Shown piece after piece: positions 1,469 through 19,504 of a stretch of DNA of 64,000 nucleotides. The position numbers were made by a program, and so were the translations under genes. The notes beneath the pieces are model-generated. The model saw only the letters and a list, made by a program, of their open reading frames with translations, searched no databases and was not told the origin of the DNA. The number at the start of each line of letters is the position of its first letter. Position 1 is the first letter of the stretch. Source of the DNA: Treponemataceae bacterium (GTDB lineage Bacteria; Spirochaetota; Spirochaetia; Treponematales; Rectinemataceae); the NCBI GenBank assembly GCA_963667725.2, contig CAXXHO010000005.1:1120001-1184000 (forward strand), read 5' to 3'.

Positions 1469-2353
1469 ATGAATTCTTTCATGGTGACATTGCGTTTTTT
1501 CGGTTTGATTTTTGCGGAGTTGACAGTCCTCTTTTTGGGGATAAGCACCTTGGACTGCATTGTTTTCGAGTACGTATCCGATGATACGCTCAAGCGATGG
1601 CTGTCCAGAAAGGGTTTGCTGGGCAATTTCCTCGGCGCGGCGATGGGGGCGGTGACGCCCTTCTGCTCTTGCTCGACAATTCCCATGACCGTCGGGCTTC
1701 TGCGCGCCGGTGTGCCTTTTGGCGCCACGATGTCATTCGTTCTCGCCTCCCCCCTGCTCAACCCGATCATACTGACGATGTTCTGGGTATTGCTTGGCTG
1801 GAAAGCCAGCCTCGTCTATTTTATGGTAACTTTTGCGGCAGCCATGGTAAGTGGCGCGGTACTGGAAAATTTAGGATTTTCGAAAGATGTGAGGAATGTG
1901 CGGATCACCGGGGGCGCTCAAGAAAAGGAAAGACTCCCGACCTTCGGCGCGAAGCTAAAAAGAGCCTTCCTTGGCGCATGGTACGACTTTAGAGGTGTTT
2001 TGGCATATCTGGCGATCGGCGTGGCCATCGGTGCCGCTATCTATGGCTATATGCCCGCGGATTTTGTGGCCAGGATCGCGGGACCGCGGAATCCTCTCGC
2101 GATTCCCGTGGCCGCGATTATCGGGATCCCTCTTTATGTAAGGGCCGAGACGGTTATCCCTGTCGCTGTCGCCCTCACGCAGAAAGGCATGAGCATTGGG
2201 GCGGTGATCGCGCTCATTATCGGCGGGGCGGGAATGAGCATTCCCGAGATGAGCATGCTGGCGAGCATTTTCAAGAAGCGGCTGGTGGCGGTATTCATCG
2301 CTGTCGTGTTCTTCACGGCGGTGACAGCCGGATTTGTGTTCAATTTTATCTAG
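1469..2353 (+). CDS. ArsP/DUF318-family permease
   Basis: TPFCSCSTIP, ASPLLNP, IGIPLYVRAE and GGAGMSIPE motifs; about 8 hydrophobic segments. Confidence 0.85.
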   Translation: MNSFMVTLRFFGLIFAELTVLFLGISTLDCIVFEYVSDDTLKRWLSRKGLLGNFLGAAMGAVTPFCSCSTIPMTVGLLRAGVPFGATMSFVLASPLLNPIILTMFWVLLGWKASLVYFMVTFAAAMVSGAVLENLGFSKDVRNVRITGGAQEKERLPTFGAKLKRAFLGAWYDFRGVLAYLAIGVAIGAAIYGYMPADFVARIAGPRNPLAIPVAAIIGIPLYVRAETVIPVAVALTQKGMSIGAVIALIIGGAGMSIPEMSMLASIFKKRLVAVFIAVVFFTAVTAGFVFNFI

Positions 2354-2688: not shown

Positions 2689-3024
2689 TTATGGCAAGGC
2701 CGCGGTCACGTCGGCGTAGACGTCGAAGACGCGGTCCAGCATCATGAGCTTGATGACGGCCGCTACCTGGCTGCCAAGGCTCGCCAGCCTGAGGAATCCG
2801 CCGGCCTCCCGCGTCGCCTTGAGTCCCGAGATCAGGGCGGAGAGCCCCGAGCTGTCGATGAAGGTGACGCCCGCCATATCGAGTATCAACCTGGTTTTTC
2901 CGCCCTCCACGATCTGCCTGATCCTCTGCTTGAACTCGGGCGCGCTCGCGCCGTTCAGCCGGCCCGAGAGGGCGACGATGTCGCAGCCTTCCCCGCCGTT
3001 TTTCTCCACAATGACAAGGTCCAT
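2689..3024 (-). CDS. STAS-domain anti-sigma-factor antagonist (SpoIIAA/RsbV-like)
   Basis: LSGRLN..., LILDMAGVTFIDSSGL with the phosphorylatable Ser; GGAGG RBS. Confidence 0.92.
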   Translation of the reverse strand: MDLVIVEKNGGEGCDIVALSGRLNGASAPEFKQRIRQIVEGGKTRLILDMAGVTFIDSSGLSALISGLKATREAGGFLRLASLGSQVAAVIKLMMLDRVFDVYADVTAALP

Positions 3025-3041
3025 TCAGGAATCCTCCATGC

Positions 3042-5057
3042 TCAATGCGTTATGTCGCGTTCGGTCAAAAATTCCGGCGGCTCGGCGCTCCAGTCCTTGG
3101 GGAGCTGGTAATACAGCGCCTTCACTACTATGCCTAGAGAAAGGACGTTGTACGCCGACCAGAAGAGATTGACTACGAGCCCTATGACGTTGAGGCCTCT
3201 CCCGAAGAAGAACATGACGAGGCCGTAGATCGCGGCGGCGATGCTCAGGGCTATTATCGTCGCCTGAGGCCAGATCAGCCTGAAATCCCTCCCGCTGTCC
3301 CTGTGCTTGGGAGTGACGACGAAGGCCAGCTTCTTGCCGCCCAGGACGCTTATCACGGCTTTTATGTTGAGAGGGAACATGGCCAGGTTGTACTGCTCGC
3401 CCCTCCACACGGGAATGCCCGCCGCCACGAACCTGAACATGATTTTGTTCATGACGAAGAAGGGAATGAAGCGGACGAAGAAATCAACGGACCATGAAGC
3501 GACGGGCGCTATGCCCGTGAAGAAGAAGACGATGGGCGCGAGAAGGAGGACGAGGTTGAAGAAACCGGAGAAGTAGGAATACATGGTGGCGAAATACATG
3601 AGTTTCTGCGCGAAGGACAGGCCTTTCTTGGTGAATGGATTCTCCCTGAGAAAAACCTGTATGGTGCCCTGGGCCCAGCGTAGCCTTTGCTTGAGCGATG
3701 TTCCGAAATCCTCGGGAGCGAGGCCGTAGGCCAGCACCTCAGGGTAGAACACGCTCTTCCAGCCGAAGGAGTGAAGGCGCATGGCAGTGGCCATGTCCTC
3801 GGTGATGCTGATCGTGGCGAGGGCCTGCACGGGGATGGCCTCCTCGCTGCGCGAGAGGTTGAGGGCCTCCATGTATTCGGGCGATATCCTGAGCTTGTCG
3901 AGGGCCGAGGAAGGCGCCTGCCGGCTCAGGGAGTCCAGGTTGCCCACGATGTGGCGGTACACGGCGGCCGCGTCCATGTCGCCGCTCTCCGCCAGCTCCT
4001 TCATCGCCGTCGCCAGCTCGCCGACGTCTTTCCTCGCGACGAGGAATTCCGCGTCTCTGACGGCTTCGCCCACGAGATCGCTCACGCGTTCGAGGGGGGC
4101 TTTGTCGTCGAGGGCCGTTCGGGCCGCCTTGAGTCCCTCCATCAGCCGCCCGACCGCGGCGCAGCTGTCCTCGTCGTCGCAGGAAGTCTTGGCCGTCCGC
4201 TTGATGAGGTTCTCGATCGTTACCCTTTCGCGCTTTTCCAGGGTTTCCACGTATTCGCGAATGCCGATCTGCATGAGGGCTTCGCGGCGGAGCACGGCGT
4301 TGGAGCCGCAGAAGAAGGCGGCGTTCCAGCCGTCCTTGCCCTGCTGGATCGGGCCGTAGAAGAGGGAAGCCTCGTTGCCGAAGGGGTCGCCCGGCGGCAG
4401 GTTATAGAAGTACTGGGGCGTCTGGACGAAGGCGACGGCCGGATCGGCGAAGAAGCCCAGGGTCTTGCGGAAGATCGCGGGAGCCGGTATCTGGTCGGCG
4501 TCAAGGATGAGGATGAACTCGCCCGAGGTTTCGAGCAGCGCGTTGTTGACGTTGCCGGCCTTGGCGTGCCGCGGCTTTTTCGCCCACTCCGGACCCCGGC
4601 TGATGTAGCCGCAGCCGAGCTCGTCGGCCATCTTCTTCATCGATTCCCGCGCCCCGTCGTCGAGGATGTACACCTTCTTGTCGGGCCAGTCGATGCGCAT
4701 GGCGGCTTTGGCCGTCATGCCGACGAGTTCCTCGGGTTCGTTGTAGGTGGTGATGAAGACATCGACCTCGGCTTTTTCGGGAGGGGGAAGGGCTTCCCTG
4801 TCGATCTTGCGCCAGGACATCAGGACGAAGAGAACCATGTCGATGATGCCGTAGCTTTCGGCTATCACCATGGGGATGGCGAACCAGAGGGCTTTCATGT
4901 TGAGGCTCGCTAAATAACGCCAGATGATGTAGTTCAGCCCCAGGGCGACGGAGACGAGGCCGATCGCGCGGGAGAGAAGGAGCCGGTGGTCGCCGCGGCC
5001 ATGGCTGCCGTCACGGGGGCTGCCGCCAGGATGGCGGCCGCTTCGGGCTGGATTCAT
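3042..5057 (-). CDS. Cellulose-synthase-like GT2 (BcsA/CesA-like); no PilZ domain; large internal insertion
   Basis: TYNEP, LDDG, HAKAGN, DAD, QTPQYF, FFCGS, TED and QRLRW motifs plus transmembrane helices. Start reassigned to ATG 5057 (MNPARS), which forms an ATGA overlap with the upstream stop. Confidence 0.9.
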   Translation of the reverse strand: MNPARSGRHPGGSPRDGSHGRGDHRLLLSRAIGLVSVALGLNYIIWRYLASLNMKALWFAIPMVIAESYGIIDMVLFVLMSWRKIDREALPPPEKAEVDVFITTYNEPEELVGMTAKAAMRIDWPDKKVYILDDGARESMKKMADELGCGYISRGPEWAKKPRHAKAGNVNNALLETSGEFILILDADQIPAPAIFRKTLGFFADPAVAFVQTPQYFYNLPPGDPFGNEASLFYGPIQQGKDGWNAAFFCGSNAVLRREALMQIGIREYVETLEKRERVTIENLIKRTAKTSCDDEDSCAAVGRLMEGLKAARTALDDKAPLERVSDLVGEAVRDAEFLVARKDVGELATAMKELAESGDMDAAAVYRHIVGNLDSLSRQAPSSALDKLRISPEYMEALNLSRSEEAIPVQALATISITEDMATAMRLHSFGWKSVFYPEVLAYGLAPEDFGTSLKQRLRWAQGTIQVFLRENPFTKKGLSFAQKLMYFATMYSYFSGFFNLVLLLAPIVFFFTGIAPVASWSVDFFVRFIPFFVMNKIMFRFVAAGIPVWRGEQYNLAMFPLNIKAVISVLGGKKLAFVVTPKHRDSGRDFRLIWPQATIIALSIAAAIYGLVMFFFGRGLNVIGLVVNLFWSAYNVLSLGIVVKALYYQLPKDWSAEPPEFLTERDITH

Positions 5058-7228
5058 GCTTTCTCCTCTCTGGCGATCTTGACGATATGCCAGCGGTTGA
5101 TGTTCGCGGGGCCATTCCCCTGGTGTTCGTATTTCAGCTCGTCGACGAGGGCGCGAACGATGAGGATGCCCCGCCCGCCCTCCTCGAGGGGAGGGGGAAG
5201 CTTGAGCCCCAGGCTTTCGGCGTCGAAGGCTTCGCCCGGATAGCCGATGTCGAAGATCATCCTGTCTTGCTCCAGACTGAGGTGGATAGTCATGGCGCTT
5301 GCGCCATTCGCTACTCCCGGCGCTTCGCCCGGCCTGGCATGGGTTATGGCGTTCGTCACGAGCTCGGAGGCCACGAGTTCCATCGCGTCGGCGAAGGCCT
5401 CGCCGTAGGAGAGGGAAGCGTCCCTGACGAAGGCGACGGCCGGCTCGAGACACTCCATGGTGGGGGGTGAAGAAAGCTGGAGTTCCCTCCGCGTCGCTTT
5501 CAGGACGATGAGGGTGAGGTCGTCGGCGAGGGAGCCTTCGCCCGAGAAATCCCGCACGGCGGCGAGGACTTTCTGGACGATATTCGCGGCCGACAGGCCA
5601 GAGGCCTTCCCGAGCAGGTCGATGAAGCGATCCATGCCGAAGAGTTCGCCGCCGCCTTCGGCGGCGACAGCCTCGGTGATTCCATCGCTGTAGATGACAA
5701 GATAATCGCCCGGCCGGACGCGTATCTCCAGCTGGCCTATGTCCGCTTTCTTCATGACGCCGATGGGCGGGGCGGTGGAGGGCAGGCGCCGGCATTCACC
5801 TGTGGAGGGACGGCAGAGGAGGGCTTCCGTATGTCCGGCTGAGGCGTAGGCTATGGATCCGCGATCCGTGTCGATGCGAATGAGCTGGGCGGTGAGGAAC
5901 ATCTCGGTGCGCTCGAGATCGTCATAAAGGGATTCGTTCATCTCGGCCAGAAGACTGGCGGGGGGATTGTCGGGGCTTGCGGCATGGCGGAACATCATGC
6001 GCGCCGCCGAAGTCATCATGGCGGCCGGAATGCCCTTCCCCGAGACGTCGGCGATGATTATGTCGCAGAGGGATGGGGATGGCATGATGTGATCATAGAA
6101 ATCCCCGCTGATATAGCGGGCGGGGATGGCGGCCGAAGAGTACTCGAAGCCGCGTATGTCGGGATTTTCCGTCGGGAGGAGGCTGCGCTGCACTTCGGCC
6201 GCCATCAGGATGTCCTGCTCCAGCCTTTGCTGCCGCGCCACCTCGGCCTGGAGCGCCCGTATCTGGGCGCCGCCTTCCTCCACCATGAGGCCGAGCTTTT
6301 GCGATTCAGCCTCGAAGCGTTCGCGAGCCCTGAACTTGGCCAGGAAGCTGCCGAGGCCGGCCCCGATTTCGGCGATCATGTCCAGCAGCTCCCTATTGCG
6401 CTGGATTTTCCTGCGGCTGAGAAAAAGCACGACGCCGTAGATCTTCGCCTCATCGATGAGGACGGTGCCGATGGCCGATACGAGACCCGATTCTTCATAC
6501 TCTCGTCGCCGCACCGATGAGTACAGCGAGGGCAGGTCGTCGAAGAGGCTCGCCTCGCCCCTGCTCCACAATAGCCCGGGCAGGCCGACGCCGGGGGCCA
6601 GGGTTGTCGCCACGGAAGCTTCAACGAGGCGTCTGAGCCTAGCCGATCGGCCATGCCAGAAGCTCTTCCGCCTGAGAAGGACCTCCTTGTCGTCGATCAG
6701 CCAGATCTCCCCGAGATCCCAGGTGAGGCTTCCGCATATCGTTCCGAGGATGTCGGCGAATTCGCGCTCGAGATCGGTCTCCGTCGTCTTCAAGGCGGCT
6801 ATGGAATGGCGCACGGTGTTGAAGCGCTCGGCTTTCACGCGGTCGCTGATGTCGCGCGCTACCACGATGATCTGCAGCTGCCGGGTTATGATATCGCCGA
6901 AAAACTGGAACTTGCTTTCGAACCAGCGGTAGTAGCCGTCCTTGCGCCGCAGTCTGCAGTCGATCCTCCTGTGGGAGCGGAAGAGAATTTCGGGCTCCAG
7001 GGCTTCGGCCACCGCTTTCCTGTCCAGGGGATGGATGAAGTCGAAGGCGTTCCGGCCTTCCAGCTCTCCCGGCTCGTAGCCGAGAAGTTCGAGGCTGGCT
7101 GGCGAGACATAGAGGCAGATGCCTTCGATCGAGATGCGCACTATGAGGTCGGTGGAGTTCTCCGCGAGGAGGCGGTAATTCTCCTCGTAACCTTTGCCAT
7201 CACCTTTCGCCGCGCTTTCAGTCGACAC
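5054..7228 (-). CDS. PAS-GAF-PP2C(SpoIIE) phosphatase fused to an RsbW-like HATPase Ser/Thr kinase
   Basis: PAS (YVSPAS..LLGY, FIHPLD); GAF-like segment (GVGLPG); PP2C motifs SGDFYD, ADVSGKG, SDGITE, DDLT; C-terminal ELVTNAITH and EGGRGI. Confidence 0.9.
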   Translation of the reverse strand: MSTESAAKGDGKGYEENYRLLAENSTDLIVRISIEGICLYVSPASLELLGYEPGELEGRNAFDFIHPLDRKAVAEALEPEILFRSHRRIDCRLRRKDGYYRWFESKFQFFGDIITRQLQIIVVARDISDRVKAERFNTVRHSIAALKTTETDLEREFADILGTICGSLTWDLGEIWLIDDKEVLLRRKSFWHGRSARLRRLVEASVATTLAPGVGLPGLLWSRGEASLFDDLPSLYSSVRRREYEESGLVSAIGTVLIDEAKIYGVVLFLSRRKIQRNRELLDMIAEIGAGLGSFLAKFRARERFEAESQKLGLMVEEGGAQIRALQAEVARQQRLEQDILMAAEVQRSLLPTENPDIRGFEYSSAAIPARYISGDFYDHIMPSPSLCDIIIADVSGKGIPAAMMTSAARMMFRHAASPDNPPASLLAEMNESLYDDLERTEMFLTAQLIRIDTDRGSIAYASAGHTEALLCRPSTGECRRLPSTAPPIGVMKKADIGQLEIRVRPGDYLVIYSDGITEAVAAEGGGELFGMDRFIDLLGKASGLSAANIVQKVLAAVRDFSGEGSLADDLTLIVLKATRRELQLSSPPTMECLEPAVAFVRDASLSYGEAFADAMELVASELVTNAITHARPGEAPGVANGASAMTIHLSLEQDRMIFDIGYPGEAFDAESLGLKLPPPLEEGGRGILIVRALVDELKYEHQGNGPANINRWHIVKIAREEKA

Positions 7229-7308: not shown

Positions 7309-7719
7309 TCAGGCAGGCCTCGCTCGCTTTAGTTCCTGATGAATTACCTCCAGTATAAACCCTTTTTCTCGCAGCGCCGCGGCCAGGGCTTCCGCCACGG
7401 CTACGGAGCGATGCTGCCCGCCCGTGCAGCCCACCGCGACCTTCAGCGATTTCTTGCCTTGAGCCCTGAAAGAGGCCTCCATCCGCAGGATGAGTCCGGT
7501 CAGGGCATCGAGAAAGGCTTGGCTTTCCTCGTCCTTGAGGACGTAGGAAGCGCAATCTGCATCCTTGCCGGTCATGTGGCAGAGCGAAGGCACGTAATAT
7601 GGGTTGGGAAGAAAACGGACGTCGACCACGAGATTGGCCTCGATCGCGCCGTACTTGTAGCCGAAAGTCCAAAGCTCTATCGATAGCCTTCCCGCGGCTT
7701 CATCCTCTGTCCTGTTCAC
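7309..7719 (-). CDS. Stand-alone RapZ/YvcJ C-terminal domain protein
   Basis: FGYKYG, DVRFLPNPYY and GCTGGQHRSV are RapZ C-terminal domain motifs; no N-terminal P-loop domain. Confidence 0.88.
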   Translation of the reverse strand: MNRTEDEAAGRLSIELWTFGYKYGAIEANLVVDVRFLPNPYYVPSLCHMTGKDADCASYVLKDEESQAFLDALTGLILRMEASFRAQGKKSLKVAVGCTGGQHRSVAVAEALAAALREKGFILEVIHQELKRARPA

Positions 7720-8869
7720 CTAAATTCCCCTTTTGCCCGTCTGGCTGATGCCGCGGCCGGTCTCCATCAAGGGGAATGCGCAGCGTAAAGGTGGAACCCT
7801 TCCCCTGTTCGCTCGAAACGGCGATGCTGCCGTCGAAAATGGCGATGATATCCTTCACGATCGCGAGCCCCAGTCCGCTGCCTCCGGTTTGAGAGCTGCG
7901 CGCCTTATCCACACGGTAGAAGCGTTCGAAAATTCTTTCCCTATCCTCTTCCGCGATTCCGATTCCGTTGTCCGACACGGCGATCGCGAGATCTTCCACG
8001 GTCGGGCTCGCTTCCACGAGTATGAAACCGCCCTCCTGCGTATACTTAATGGCGTTCTCCACGAGATTGTGGATAGCATGAAAAAGCCAGGTTTCGTTGC
8101 CGCTGATCGTAAGCCCTTGCAGGGAGATCCGAGCCTCGAGGGCTTGGCGCTTCTTCTCGGCGAATGGAGCCAGAACGGTGAGAACCTGACGCAGCATCTT
8201 TTCGACGTCGATCGAACCTTGCCTTTCGGTGGATATTTTATTCTCCATCTTCGAAAGGAGGAGAAGCTCGGATATCAGTTTTTTAAGCCTCTCCGTCTCG
8301 ATCTCCAGTATTTCCAAGCTGCGGTTCCTGTCTTCTGGCGAAAGGTTGTCATACATTTTCAGCATCTCTATGAAGCCGGAGATGAGGGTGAGGGGCGTCC
8401 TAAATTCGTGGGATACGGTGGACACGAATTCCTTGCGAAGGCTCTCGACTTTTTTCCTTTCGGTTATGTCCTTGACGATCGCGAGAATGCCAATGAAGGA
8501 TCGTTCGCCGTATTTGCTCATCACGGGCGTTATATTCACCTGGATATCGAATCCGATGTCATTTTTCGTCTCGAAGGTCTTCCCGCTTTTTTCGATACGG
8601 GCCGAGCGGCACTCCTCAAGTATTTTTCGCATCGTCGCGTTGTGCGCTTTATTTCCGCCATCGAAGAGACAGGATCCATGGATGCCCAGGAGGCTCTCGG
8701 CGCTCCTGTTGAAAAGGACGATGCGTTCTTCGGTGTCGGTCAGGAAAAACCCGTCCTCCATCGAAGAAAACACCGAGTTGATGTAATTGTTGTGCTCGTT
8801 GTTCCGACGAGTCATCTCGTCCAGCTGATTCTGGAGCGCCGCGCATTTTTCTCGCCAGTTTTCCGTCAT
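7700..8869 (-). CDS. Cytoplasmic PAS sensor histidine kinase (PhoR/WalK-like)
   Basis: SHEFRTPLT H-box, NLVENAIKY, DNGIGI, FERFYRVDKARS, GGSGLGL; PAS domain; no transmembrane helix. Confidence 0.93.
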   Translation of the reverse strand: MTENWREKCAALQNQLDEMTRRNNEHNNYINSVFSSMEDGFFLTDTEERIVLFNRSAESLLGIHGSCLFDGGNKAHNATMRKILEECRSARIEKSGKTFETKNDIGFDIQVNITPVMSKYGERSFIGILAIVKDITERKKVESLRKEFVSTVSHEFRTPLTLISGFIEMLKMYDNLSPEDRNRSLEILEIETERLKKLISELLLLSKMENKISTERQGSIDVEKMLRQVLTVLAPFAEKKRQALEARISLQGLTISGNETWLFHAIHNLVENAIKYTQEGGFILVEASPTVEDLAIAVSDNGIGIAEEDRERIFERFYRVDKARSSQTGGSGLGLAIVKDIIAIFDGSIAVSSEQGKGSTFTLRIPLDGDRPRHQPDGQKGNLGEQDRG

Positions 8870-9564
8870 TCGATGGCTCTGAGTCCTCTGCTGCGCACCG
8901 TCTCGATATATCCCGAGCCTGTCGGGCTTGTCCCCAGCTTCTTTCGCAGATTGCGCAGATGGACGTCGAGGGAACGTCCCGCGGCGGCTTCCCTGGCAAG
9001 GTTGAGCGATTCAACTAGTTCGTTTTTTGAGAAAACAATGCCTGGCCTGCGCGAGAGCGCGGCGAGAAGGGAAAACTCGGTAGGCGAGAGCGGAACCTTT
9101 TTGCCGGATTTTTCCACTTCGAAGCCTTCCATGTCTATCGTGAGATCCTGGATACGGATCCTGCCGTCGCCGCCAGCCGCCGGTTGCCGGCCCGAGCGGC
9201 GCAGCACGGCCTCGATGCGCGCGAAGAGCTCGCGAAGGCTGAAAGGCTTCGTGATATAGTCGTCGGCGCCGAGGCTCAATCCCGTCACCTTGTCGTCCTC
9301 CTCGCTCTTCGCGGTGAGGAAGATTATGGGGATATCCCTGGTAGTGGCGTTCTGCTTCAGCGCCGCGCAGGTTTCGGCGCCGTTCATGCCGGGAAGCATG
9401 GAATCGAGGAGAATGAGGTCCGGGCGCTCGCCGCGGGCGACGGCTATCGCCTCATAGCCATCGTACGCGATGAGCGATTCGTAGTGGTTCTGCCTGAGGC
9501 TCATCACGAGGAATTCGACGATATGGCGCTCATCGTCGACGATGAGAATTCTCTTTTCGCTCAT
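8866..9564 (-). CDS. OmpR/PhoB-family response regulator
   Basis: ILIVDDE, DLILLD, GADDYITKPF; winged helix LDVHLRNLRKKL and IETVR. Confidence 0.95.
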   Translation of the reverse strand: MSEKRILIVDDERHIVEFLVMSLRQNHYESLIAYDGYEAIAVARGERPDLILLDSMLPGMNGAETCAALKQNATTRDIPIIFLTAKSEEDDKVTGLSLGADDYITKPFSLRELFARIEAVLRRSGRQPAAGGDGRIRIQDLTIDMEGFEVEKSGKKVPLSPTEFSLLAALSRRPGIVFSKNELVESLNLAREAAAGRSLDVHLRNLRKKLGTSPTGSGYIETVRSRGLRAIE

Positions 9565-18412: not shown

Positions 18413-19504
18413 TTATTTTTCGGTCGGGGAAGGTTTCCTCGGCGCGAGCCGCGTCACATAGAGGAAAAGGGCTGCCGATATGCAGAAAGAGACGAAGGTG
18501 AGGCAATGGGCGAGGAAATTTTTCGTGGTTCGGGCGACGATGAAAAGGGAGGCCTGCGTCGCCATGACGAAATATACGATGTTCAGGATTTGCAGCGGCG
18601 TATAGCCGTGGTCCAGGAGAAGGTGATGGATATGTTTGCGGTCGGGCGAGCCGATGGACAGGCCGGCGCGGACGCGTCTGACGATGGCGCGAAGAGTGTC
18701 GATCATGGGGATGGCCAACAAGGCCATCGAGGGAAGCAGGCCGGGGGACCATGAACCCTCGGCCGCCGAGAGGCCGATTTTTGTCTGCCCGAGGAAGGGC
18801 ATCACCGAGAGAGCGAATCCAAGGAAGAGACTGCCCGAGTCGCCCATGAAAAGCTTGGCTTTGGGAGCGGGGAAATTCACCGAGAGGAATCCGATCACGA
18901 CGCCGGCGAGCGTAAGGCAGATGTAGGCGCCGGGAACGTCGCCCCCCAGGAGATAGAAAAAGCCGAAGGCGATCGAAGCGATGGCCGATATTCCGCCCGC
19001 GAGTCCGTCCATCCCGTCGATGAGGTTGACGGCGTTCGTCATGCCGACGATCCAGCCCCAGCTGATGATGATAGAAGAAAGGCCCAGGGAGCCTGATAGG
19101 GCATCCGTACCGTAGCCGAAACCCCGGAAGCTGAACCCCGAGACCACGATGAAAGCGGCGATAATGGATTGAACGATGAATTTCTTTTTAGCGGGAATAC
19201 TGCGGATGTCGTCGGCGAGGCCGAGGAAGTGCATGCCCGCCGCTCCCAGCGCCAGCGGCGCAAGGCCTGTCAATCTTGCCGAAAAGCCGGCAAGGGCGCC
19301 GCGGCTCCCAATCAGTCCGAAGATGCCCAAGGCCAAGAAGAATGCCCAGAACATTCCGATACCGCCCAGCCGGGGGATCTTTCCGCTGTGGATTTTTCTC
19401 CCGCCCGTGCTGTCGTAGAGATTTTTCTTCTGGGCGAAGCCTATGATCATGGGCATGGAAAGCGCCGACAGCATTGTCGAAACTACGATCGTCGAATAGT
19501 ACAT
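18413..19504 (-). CDS. WecA/TagO-type undecaprenyl-phosphate sugar-1-phosphate transferase (MraY family)
   Basis: RKIH..IPRLGG, GLADD, NAVNLIDGMDGLA, LFMGDSGS, PDRKHIHH. Confidence 0.9.
   Translation of the reverse strand: MYYSTIVVSTMLSALSMPMIIGFAQKKNLYDSTGGRKIHSGKIPRLGGIGMFWAFFLALGIFGLIGSRGALAGFSARLTGLAPLALGAAGMHFLGLADDIRSIPAKKKFIVQSIIAAFIVVSGFSFRGFGYGTDALSGSLGLSSIIISWGWIVGMTNAVNLIDGMDGLAGGISAIASIAFGFFYLLGGDVPGAYICLTLAGVVIGFLSVNFPAPKAKLFMGDSGSLFLGFALSVMPFLGQTKIGLSAAEGSWSPGLLPSMALLAIPMIDTLRAIVRRVRAGLSIGSPDRKHIHHLLLDHGYTPLQILNIVYFVMATQASLFIVARTTKNFLAHCLTFVSFCISAALFLYVTRLAPRKPSPTEK

Follow-up and report, generated by a model that had tools for sequence, protein, structure and literature searches.

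A 64,000-nucleotide (nt) stretch of a Treponemataceae bacterium genome (assembly GCA_963667725.2, contig CAXXHO010000005.1, positions 1,120,001 to 1,184,000 of the forward strand), hereafter the window, contains a three-gene operon encoding a sensor phosphatase fused to a kinase, a processive family 2 glycosyltransferase (GT2) resembling the cellulose synthase BcsA and a small STAS protein. We propose that the operon probably constitutes a kinase/phosphatase-STAS switch on a synthase that lacks a PilZ domain, in which the STAS protein, when unphosphorylated, would bind the cytosolic face of the enzyme and activate it. The synthase belongs to an insert-bearing clade, is encoded with STAS, kinase and phosphatase in at least three bacterial phyla and, in one lineage, is kept with or fused to a STAS domain that has lost the phosphorylatable serine. 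The elements of the operon, with lengths in amino acids (aa), are as follows.

5054..7228, minus strand: sensor phosphatase-kinase fusion, 724 aa, with PAS, weak GAF, coiled linker, SpoIIE/PP2C and HATPase_c_2 regions
5114..5410, minus strand: RsbW/SpoIIAB-like kinase domain of the fusion (HATPase_c_2)
3042..5057, minus strand: PilZ-less, BcsA-like processive GT2 synthase, 671 aa, its start codon overlapping the upstream stop (ATGA)
3822..4262, minus strand: family-defining helical cytosolic insert of the synthase, ~147 aa, about residues 266–412
2689..3024, minus strand: stand-alone STAS protein, 111 aa, with a DSSG motif
2851..2853, minus strand: codon for Ser58 of the STAS protein, predicted to accept the phosphate and aligned with the SpoIIAA DSSG motif

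The phosphatase-kinase and synthase genes overlap at 5054–5057, and 17 nt (3025–3041) separate the synthase and STAS genes, in line with the tight coupling of three genes described in an initial annotation made from the sequence alone. Its domain assignments were recovered by Pfam, which places PAS (17–127), SpoIIE (390–577) and HATPase_c_2 (607–705) in the fusion, with GAF_2 (151–287) at 24.9 bits and thus below its cut-off of 28.6, and identifies GT2/Cellulose_synt and STAS in the other two proteins. The PP2C metal-binding motifs are intact (IADVSGKG, YSDG and DDLT), and the kinase keeps its N-box (ELVTNAI) and G2 box (EGGRG). SpoIIAA is phosphorylated at the serine of its DSSG motif, and alignment of the two DSSG motifs places the equivalent serine at Ser58 of the STAS protein. 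F55, D57, S58, S59 and G60 are invariant in 39 aligned relatives.

All of the BcsA motifs that the initial annotation had named were located in the synthase (LDDG 132, HAKAGN 164, DAD 186, QTPQ 212, FFCGS 248, TED 419 and QRLRW 457), together with a gating-loop FVVTPK at residue 579, and the enzyme thus carries the processive GT2 signature of D,D,D,QxxRW with FFCGS, TED and FxVTxK. Pfam Cellulose_synt aligns residues 163–590 to profile positions 182–612 in one stretch. The predicted model (predicted local distance difference test, pLDDT, 78.6) has the BcsA fold with a transmembrane channel, and its best Foldseek match is Escherichia coli BcsA (E 6e-27, template modelling score, TM, 0.65). The last long helix of the model spans residues 624–648, leaving 23 residues, and neither PilZ motif (RxxxR or DxSxxG) occurs after residue 590; the predicted end of the protein about 20 aa beyond the last transmembrane helix, with no PilZ domain, therefore stands. 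A C-terminal tail binding cyclic diguanosine monophosphate (c-di-GMP) was considered and rejected on the same 23 residues. Against the curated CelA model TIGR03030 the synthase scored 363 bits versus a cut-off of 699, partly owing to the missing PilZ domain and the insert. The equivalent of BcsA Glu371 (E449) is conserved, its Arg partner having been lost. A whole-genome search for BcsB (PF03170) gave zero matches in this 97%-complete genome. With neither PilZ nor BcsB, the synthase falls outside canonical BcsA membership. Judged by its closeness to BcsA, its likeliest product is a beta-1,4-glucan.

A feature absent from the initial annotation is the ~147-aa insert, which interrupts the alignment to E. 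coli BcsA between positions 447 and 449, just before TED, and is flanked by CGS..RREAL on one side and TED on the other. The insert is predicted to be all-helical, with three long and several short helices, at a block pLDDT of ~80–90 over most of its length (76 when folded alone). Fold comparison of the insert alone against 48,161 chains reached a best Z of 7.8 and returned only generic helical bundles, to which no family could be assigned. A sequence search of 1.84 billion representatives yielded 5 matches, and both full-length ones hold the insert at the same synthase position. That position is also that of the class-specific region (CSR) of plant CesA. Homology to the CSR was dropped, as atlas scores of plant cellulose-synthase fragments (<=0.82) are at chance level, and the common position is probably convergent. 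A search for synthase forms of 1176–3355 aa found none, itself weak evidence. The insert is the likeliest candidate for a regulatory surface of the synthase; its perfect co-occurrence with PilZ loss, and an analogy with the stalk of the diguanylate cyclase SiaD, make it a candidate docking site for the STAS protein.

The linkage between synthase and switch was surveyed in at least 160 synthase loci from two sequence scans. Classing by QTP-to-QxxRW spacing gave 71 insert-bearing and 74 insert-less loci, with 15 dropped as partial or motif-variant. PilZ motifs are absent from all 67 complete insert-bearing synthases, whose tails after QxxRW measure 195–233 aa; the 63 insert-less synthases with a complete C terminus all have tails of at least 318 aa, 41 of them with PilZ motifs. 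Of 64 insert-bearing loci, 55 have a STAS gene that begins no more than 200 nt downstream of the synthase, compared to 0 of 59 insert-less loci. Within 4 kb of the synthase, at the 48 insert-bearing loci with 2.5 kb on both sides, STAS was present in 42, kinase in 47 and phosphatase in 39; all three parts were found together in 39 of these loci, compared to 1 of 45 insert-less loci, and at least one part in all 48. The linkage is far beyond chance, chance adjacency being rejected by these counts, and the conservation of three-gene linkage that the initial annotation had set as a test holds across phyla.

In a tree of 79 rows, built without the insert by a quick method, the insert-bearing synthases make up one side of a 100%-supported branch spanning Spirochaetota, Actinomycetota, Chloroflexota and Myxococcota. 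They therefore have one origin, and the counts show persistence rather than repeated invention. Gene order varies: spirochaetes and Anaerolineae have a kinase-phosphatase fusion, and in Actinomycetota the kinase follows STAS as a gene of its own. In the window's own family, whose counts overlap in part with the wider survey, the synthase occurs in 13 of 69 genomes and a module-type STAS (E<1e-30) in 14, including all 13 synthase genomes and adjacent to the synthase each time. In a 221-genome sample of Curtobacterium's family (16–21 candidates scored per genome), 32 of the 33 genomes with the full insert have a module-type STAS. Nine insert loci lack an adjacent STAS gene, six of them in Curtobacterium; in the four Curtobacterium genomes tested, the sole STAS match lies elsewhere, beside a second kinase. 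At another locus (L064) the switch lies just upstream on the opposite strand, and at L032 STAS is located elsewhere in the genome. Clustering of neighbour genes revealed no further constant gene at insert loci. Two local arrangements were also seen. In Curtobacterium (L023, L030, L031, L033, L036 and L039; L090–L093), the synthase is followed by a kinase and a ~830-aa protein with a C-terminal OpgC domain; in Roseiflexus (L043 and L049), bcsB forms part of the cassette, together with a PAS-GAF histidine kinase that feeds a REC-SpoIIE phosphatase.

The partner of the STAS protein is indicated by a lineage in which the two proteins are joined. In one genome (G270) the synthase reading frame continues into a STAS domain at the C terminus (L205, 4546–6933, 796 aa; Pfam STAS above cut-off), the protein being identical to P0129 (source label Pseudoclavibacter sp. 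13-3). A second synthase-STAS fusion, P0130, shares 68% identity over the region searched, and G330 encodes a near-copy of it (L227). Chance read-through was rejected as the origin of the fusion, since two proteins at 68% identity share it. In G252, G314 and G355 a STAS of this type has its own gene, the next one after the synthase (L206, L207 and L228). This type was matched in 5 of 401 genomes; its synthases are a short-insert sub-clade, and the group nests in the insert family as one clade, equivalent to one event. All five STAS sequences have lost F55, D57 and S58 (RVTPAG, RVTAAG, RVTASG) as well as R22, and have retained L68, R72, G75, L78 and R79. No module-type kinase or phosphatase is encoded at the five loci. 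In three of these genomes (G252, G270 and G314), a genome-wide search returned only partial SpoIIE matches, none full-length, and HATPase_c_2 matches only in frames of at least 322 aa. Because this lineage has retained a non-phosphorylatable STAS, without a kinase, beside the synthase or joined to it, the synthase is likely the partner of that STAS. A permanently tethered inhibitor would make the gene useless, so the unphosphorylated form is likely the needed one. A GH26 gene stands beside four of the five loci.

In the proposed mechanism, a signal would reach the sensor-linked PP2C, which would remove the phosphate from STAS Ser58; the unphosphorylated STAS protein would then bind the synthase from the cytosolic side, close to the finger helix and the gating loop, and so start synthesis. 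Re-phosphorylation of Ser58 by the RsbW-like kinase would turn the enzyme off again. Such a phospho-switch would replace the c-di-GMP/PilZ control of canonical BcsA. More tentatively, with the odds slightly against the whole of it, the insert-bearing enzymes could form a distinct synthase class in which the insert beside the finger helix is the STAS receptor and a serine phospho-switch directly gates a processive synthase, usually without BcsB, one lineage being hard-wired on by a fused non-phosphorylatable STAS. Gating by the switch instead of c-di-GMP, as first suggested by the initial annotation, fits the cross-phylum linkage, the lack of a SigB/F/G-type match in most carriers tested and the fusions. 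The genome has 21 GGDEF matches, every one outside the window, through which c-di-GMP may still reach the synthase indirectly. Its description of the switch as self-contained suits the window cassette but not Curtobacterium, where STAS lies elsewhere, nor the genomes that have the switch without the synthase.

The STAS protein was also predicted in complex with the GT2, a check that the initial annotation had called for. With synthase residues 23–665, the complex scored 0.44 compared to 0.00 for the best control, graded by the tool as weak support, with at least 96% contact agreement between runs and a partner pLDDT of at least 84. Among reference pairs, 116 of the 157 solved ones and 2 of the 215 mismatched ones attain the mark applied; those that do so with scores <=0.60 comprise only 18 solved pairs and both mismatches.

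Several observations weigh against the proposed switch. The prediction tool rates a complex score in this range as more often wrong than right unless the pairing is likely beforehand, and the prediction gave no interface and hence no pointer to the insert as docking site. The insert itself is poorly conserved (mean column identity 40%) and varies in length from about 80 to 150 aa. In the window kinase, the G1-box Asp of RsbW is replaced by Tyr (DIGYPG), a change that had gone unremarked; of 36 aligned kinases, 27 have Asp here, with Tyr typical of the window's clade (7 of 7 family genomes fetched, L110–L116) and Ala or Glu of Arthrobacter-like loci. Activity of the window kinase is therefore not assured, and a pseudokinase is possible, although the retention of Ser58 and the phosphatase motifs in the G1-Tyr clade argues for a working phosphorylation cycle. 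Among the Arthrobacter-like loci, L014, L017, L018 and L021 have Ala at this position while the N and G2 boxes stay. The switch also occurs apart from the synthase: of 188 genomes in which no full insert was detected, 13 hold a module-type STAS. At 11 of the 12 STAS loci fetched (L209–L220), kinase and phosphatase accompany STAS and no synthase is encoded within about 9 kb; the switch can thus stand on its own. Conversely, one metagenome-assembled genome (that of L057) has the synthase and no module-type STAS. L175 (5827–8079, dropped from the counts) is an insert-less synthase with PilZ-type motifs on the sister branch, and has STAS directly downstream and a phosphatase, a kinase and a second STAS upstream; it is possibly an intermediate with both controls. 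The samples are, among the loci listed, rich in Arthrobacter and Curtobacterium kin, and with a single insert clade and a single serine-less event the counts are not independent. SigB/F/G-like matches were found in 16 of 46 carrier genomes, 1 of them above cut-off.

That last count bears on an indirect switch, whose target would be a sigma factor (an extracytoplasmic function, ECF, factor, or FliA via FlgM) or a diguanylate cyclase from another locus. The synthase would then be no more than a member of the regulated operon, and the insert would serve oligomerization, as is thought for plant CesA insertions. The trios without synthase suit this explanation, as do the FliA, the five short sigma-70 proteins and the many GGDEF domains of the window's own genome, and the STAS-controlled cyclases BgrR, HsbD and SiaD are known (PMC8457831). 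A sigma factor as kinase target had been named in the initial annotation as the outcome that would overturn its proposal; the 16 carriers with a SigB/F/G-like gene leave room for it, but the other 30 of the 46, many of them drafts, have no SigB/F/G-type match at E<=1e-45. In the window's genome, all 10 sigma-70 matches lie outside the window, and the four scanned comprise three RpoD/RpoS-like proteins and one FliA/WhiG, none of which passes the TIGR02980 cut-off for the SigB/F/G type. No sigma or GGDEF gene occurs among 58 neighbours scanned, and the absence of bcsB, GGDEF and sigma genes from the window, as first reported, agrees with the genome searches (bcsZ and bcsC were not searched by family). 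The operon thus lacks the cognate SigB/F/G factor of canonical Rsb/SpoIIA membership, with ECF or FliA targets possible. An indirect target would leave both the synthase-STAS fusion and the kinase-less, serine-less STAS unexplained, and the 23-residue tail of the synthase, compared to the 139-aa tail used by BgsA (PMC5567048), offers no c-di-GMP-binding tail. We consider this explanation unlikely.

A different sign of control would follow if loss of PilZ and of the Arg580 brake had left the synthase on by default, to be shut off by phospho-STAS or by the RsbW-like domain acting on the insert with STAS as antagonist. Removal of the R580–E371 bridge makes BcsA constitutively active (PMC5567048, citing Morgan 2014), and the window synthase has the Glu equivalent without an Arg partner. 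The kinase is also the part most often found within 4 kb, stays beside the synthase in the six Curtobacterium loci where STAS moved and, with its G1 Asp lost, would suit a role in binding only. Against this, the serine-less lineage keeps STAS, even fused, in genomes where no cognate kinase or phosphatase was found, so an anti-kinase STAS would have nothing to antagonize; default-on control is accordingly quite improbable. Least probable, and by our estimate very unlikely, is a purely structural STAS subunit for folding, membrane targeting or oligomerization, with the kinase a degenerate pseudokinase in the window's clade and the switch locked. The G1 Tyr in every family genome fetched, the serine-less fusions and the non-phosphorylation roles of STAS in SLC26/SulP transporters (PMC8256260) are compatible with it. 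The same clade, however, retains DSSG, the kinase N-box and G2 box and all PP2C metal-binding motifs, and the sensor domains of the phosphatase vary among loci (PAS-GAF, REC, GAF, MASE1 and 7TM), as expected of live signal input. Direct activation by unphosphorylated STAS is the likeliest mechanism.

The synthase is single-copy in the genome, and its nearest named relatives (82–92% identity) carry the labels Rectinemataceae or Spirochaetales. The genome has three STAS matches, and only that of the operon sits in a small (111-aa) frame. All three operon genes are covered in part by contigs from one possible RNA run, which cannot show transcription, and promoter and terminator scans of the locus gave chance-level results only. 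No accessory gene adjoins the operon in the window, which provides no evident route for export across the spirochaete outer membrane; the glucan may well stay in the periplasm or be bound to the wall, and is perhaps acylated. Accessory genes are sporadic elsewhere: within 7 kb of 84 insert loci there are 12 OpgC-type acyltransferase genes, 6 GH26, 2 BcsB and 1 each of GH16, GH12 and PIG-L (L010, from the unpublished genome G007, supplies the PIG-L gene and one of the GH26 genes), and 38 of 56 long insert loci have none. Upstream on the same strand (7309–9564) lie a response regulator, a PAS histidine kinase and a stand-alone RapZ C-terminal domain protein (136 aa) that ends 80 nt before the operon and was not seen as a recurrent neighbour in related loci. 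An ArsP-type permease is encoded downstream (window 1469–2353; L089) and belongs to an arsenic/metal-resistance-like region that extends left of the window. The start of an open reading frame at 18413–19504 resembles that of a WecA/MraY-type priming glycosyltransferase.

If the proposed switch is correct, cellulose-type synthases would have a second way of being gated, with PilZ swapped for a phosphorylation switch, in soil- and plant-associated Actinomycetota, in Chloroflexota and in anaerobic spirochaetes. A mechanism described in 2026 as specific to cyanobacteria (PMC13555669) would extend to processive synthases. The cassette offers a three- or four-gene system for testing the direct target of a non-anti-sigma STAS protein, a question long open for SypA, and poses the further question of how such an enzyme functions when BcsB is missing. 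Structural studies have a ready single-chain construct in the natural synthase-STAS fusion, which could also be a c-di-GMP-independent producer of glucan. Literature searches, covering main texts without supplements and few subscription papers, found no published description of the cassette and no precedent for an enzyme-targeting STAS switch on a processive synthase; the available parts of papers on BcsA gating, BgsA and PilZ-less synthases (PMC8892547, PMC5567048, PMC4877384, PMC6821405, PMC12430437, PMC12267927 and PMC7112194) do not describe it.

For bacterial cellulose synthases, c-di-GMP is the textbook means of control. BcsA of E. coli and Rhodobacter sphaeroides is the best sequence and fold match of the window synthase, from D,D,D,QxxRW, HAKAGN, QTP, FFCGS and FxVTxK to the Glu371 equivalent; the window synthase differs in lacking PilZ and its RxxxR, in the insert before TED, in its linkage to a STAS switch and in the absence of BcsB, which stands beside only 2 of the 84 insert loci. 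Plant CesA and the cyanobacterial synthases with a plant-conserved region (PCR) are likewise PilZ-less, and the plant enzymes have their class-specific region at the position of the insert (PMC8892547, PMC12430437), but the window synthase has neither the PCR nor the N-terminal zinc finger of CesA, and its insert shares position only. In Anabaena, the synthase alr3757 is also described as lacking PilZ, and Alr3760 is listed as a candidate serine kinase. On the switch side, RsbU-RsbV-RsbW and SpoIIE-SpoIIAA-SpoIIAB of Bacillus comprise the same three domain families, with DSSG and the kinase N and G2 boxes, whereas the window STAS has GRLN for GE/D-LD and a module-specific Arg79, the kinase has lost its G1 Asp and no cognate SigB/F/G gene is linked.

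The initial annotation knew of no characterized example of such control, yet close precedents exist in three enzyme- or polysaccharide-directed switches. In Anabaena PCC 7120, the sigma-less HenR/All4160/Alr3423 switch controls a glycosyltransferase of polysaccharide synthesis by way of a serine in STAS, the STAS domain of All4160 being fused N-terminally to a Bac_transf priming transferase that is inactivated by phosphorylation, a strategy called lineage-specific to cyanobacteria (PMC13555669). The window system differs in targeting a processive GT2, in a STAS usually encoded as a separate gene, in its single cassette and in its occurrence in other phyla. In the SiaABCD system of Pseudomonas aeruginosa, unphosphorylated SiaC binds the helical stalk of SiaD and activates it (PMC8457831); the target there is a diguanylate cyclase with output via c-di-GMP, no cyclase is linked to the window cassette, and the insert resembles the stalk by analogy, with no homology seen. 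SypE of Vibrio fischeri, one protein with kinase and phosphatase domains, controls the stand-alone STAS protein SypA in a polysaccharide locus with no sigma factor known (PMC4517449, PMC8256260), and SypA is active unphosphorylated (PMC4517449); the syp locus comprises 18 genes, whereas the only constant partner of the window cassette is one synthase. As SiaC, All4160 and SypA are all active unphosphorylated, they share the sign proposed for the window STAS. By analogy, then, this real, conserved and uncharacterized cassette would work like the All4160 and SiaC systems.

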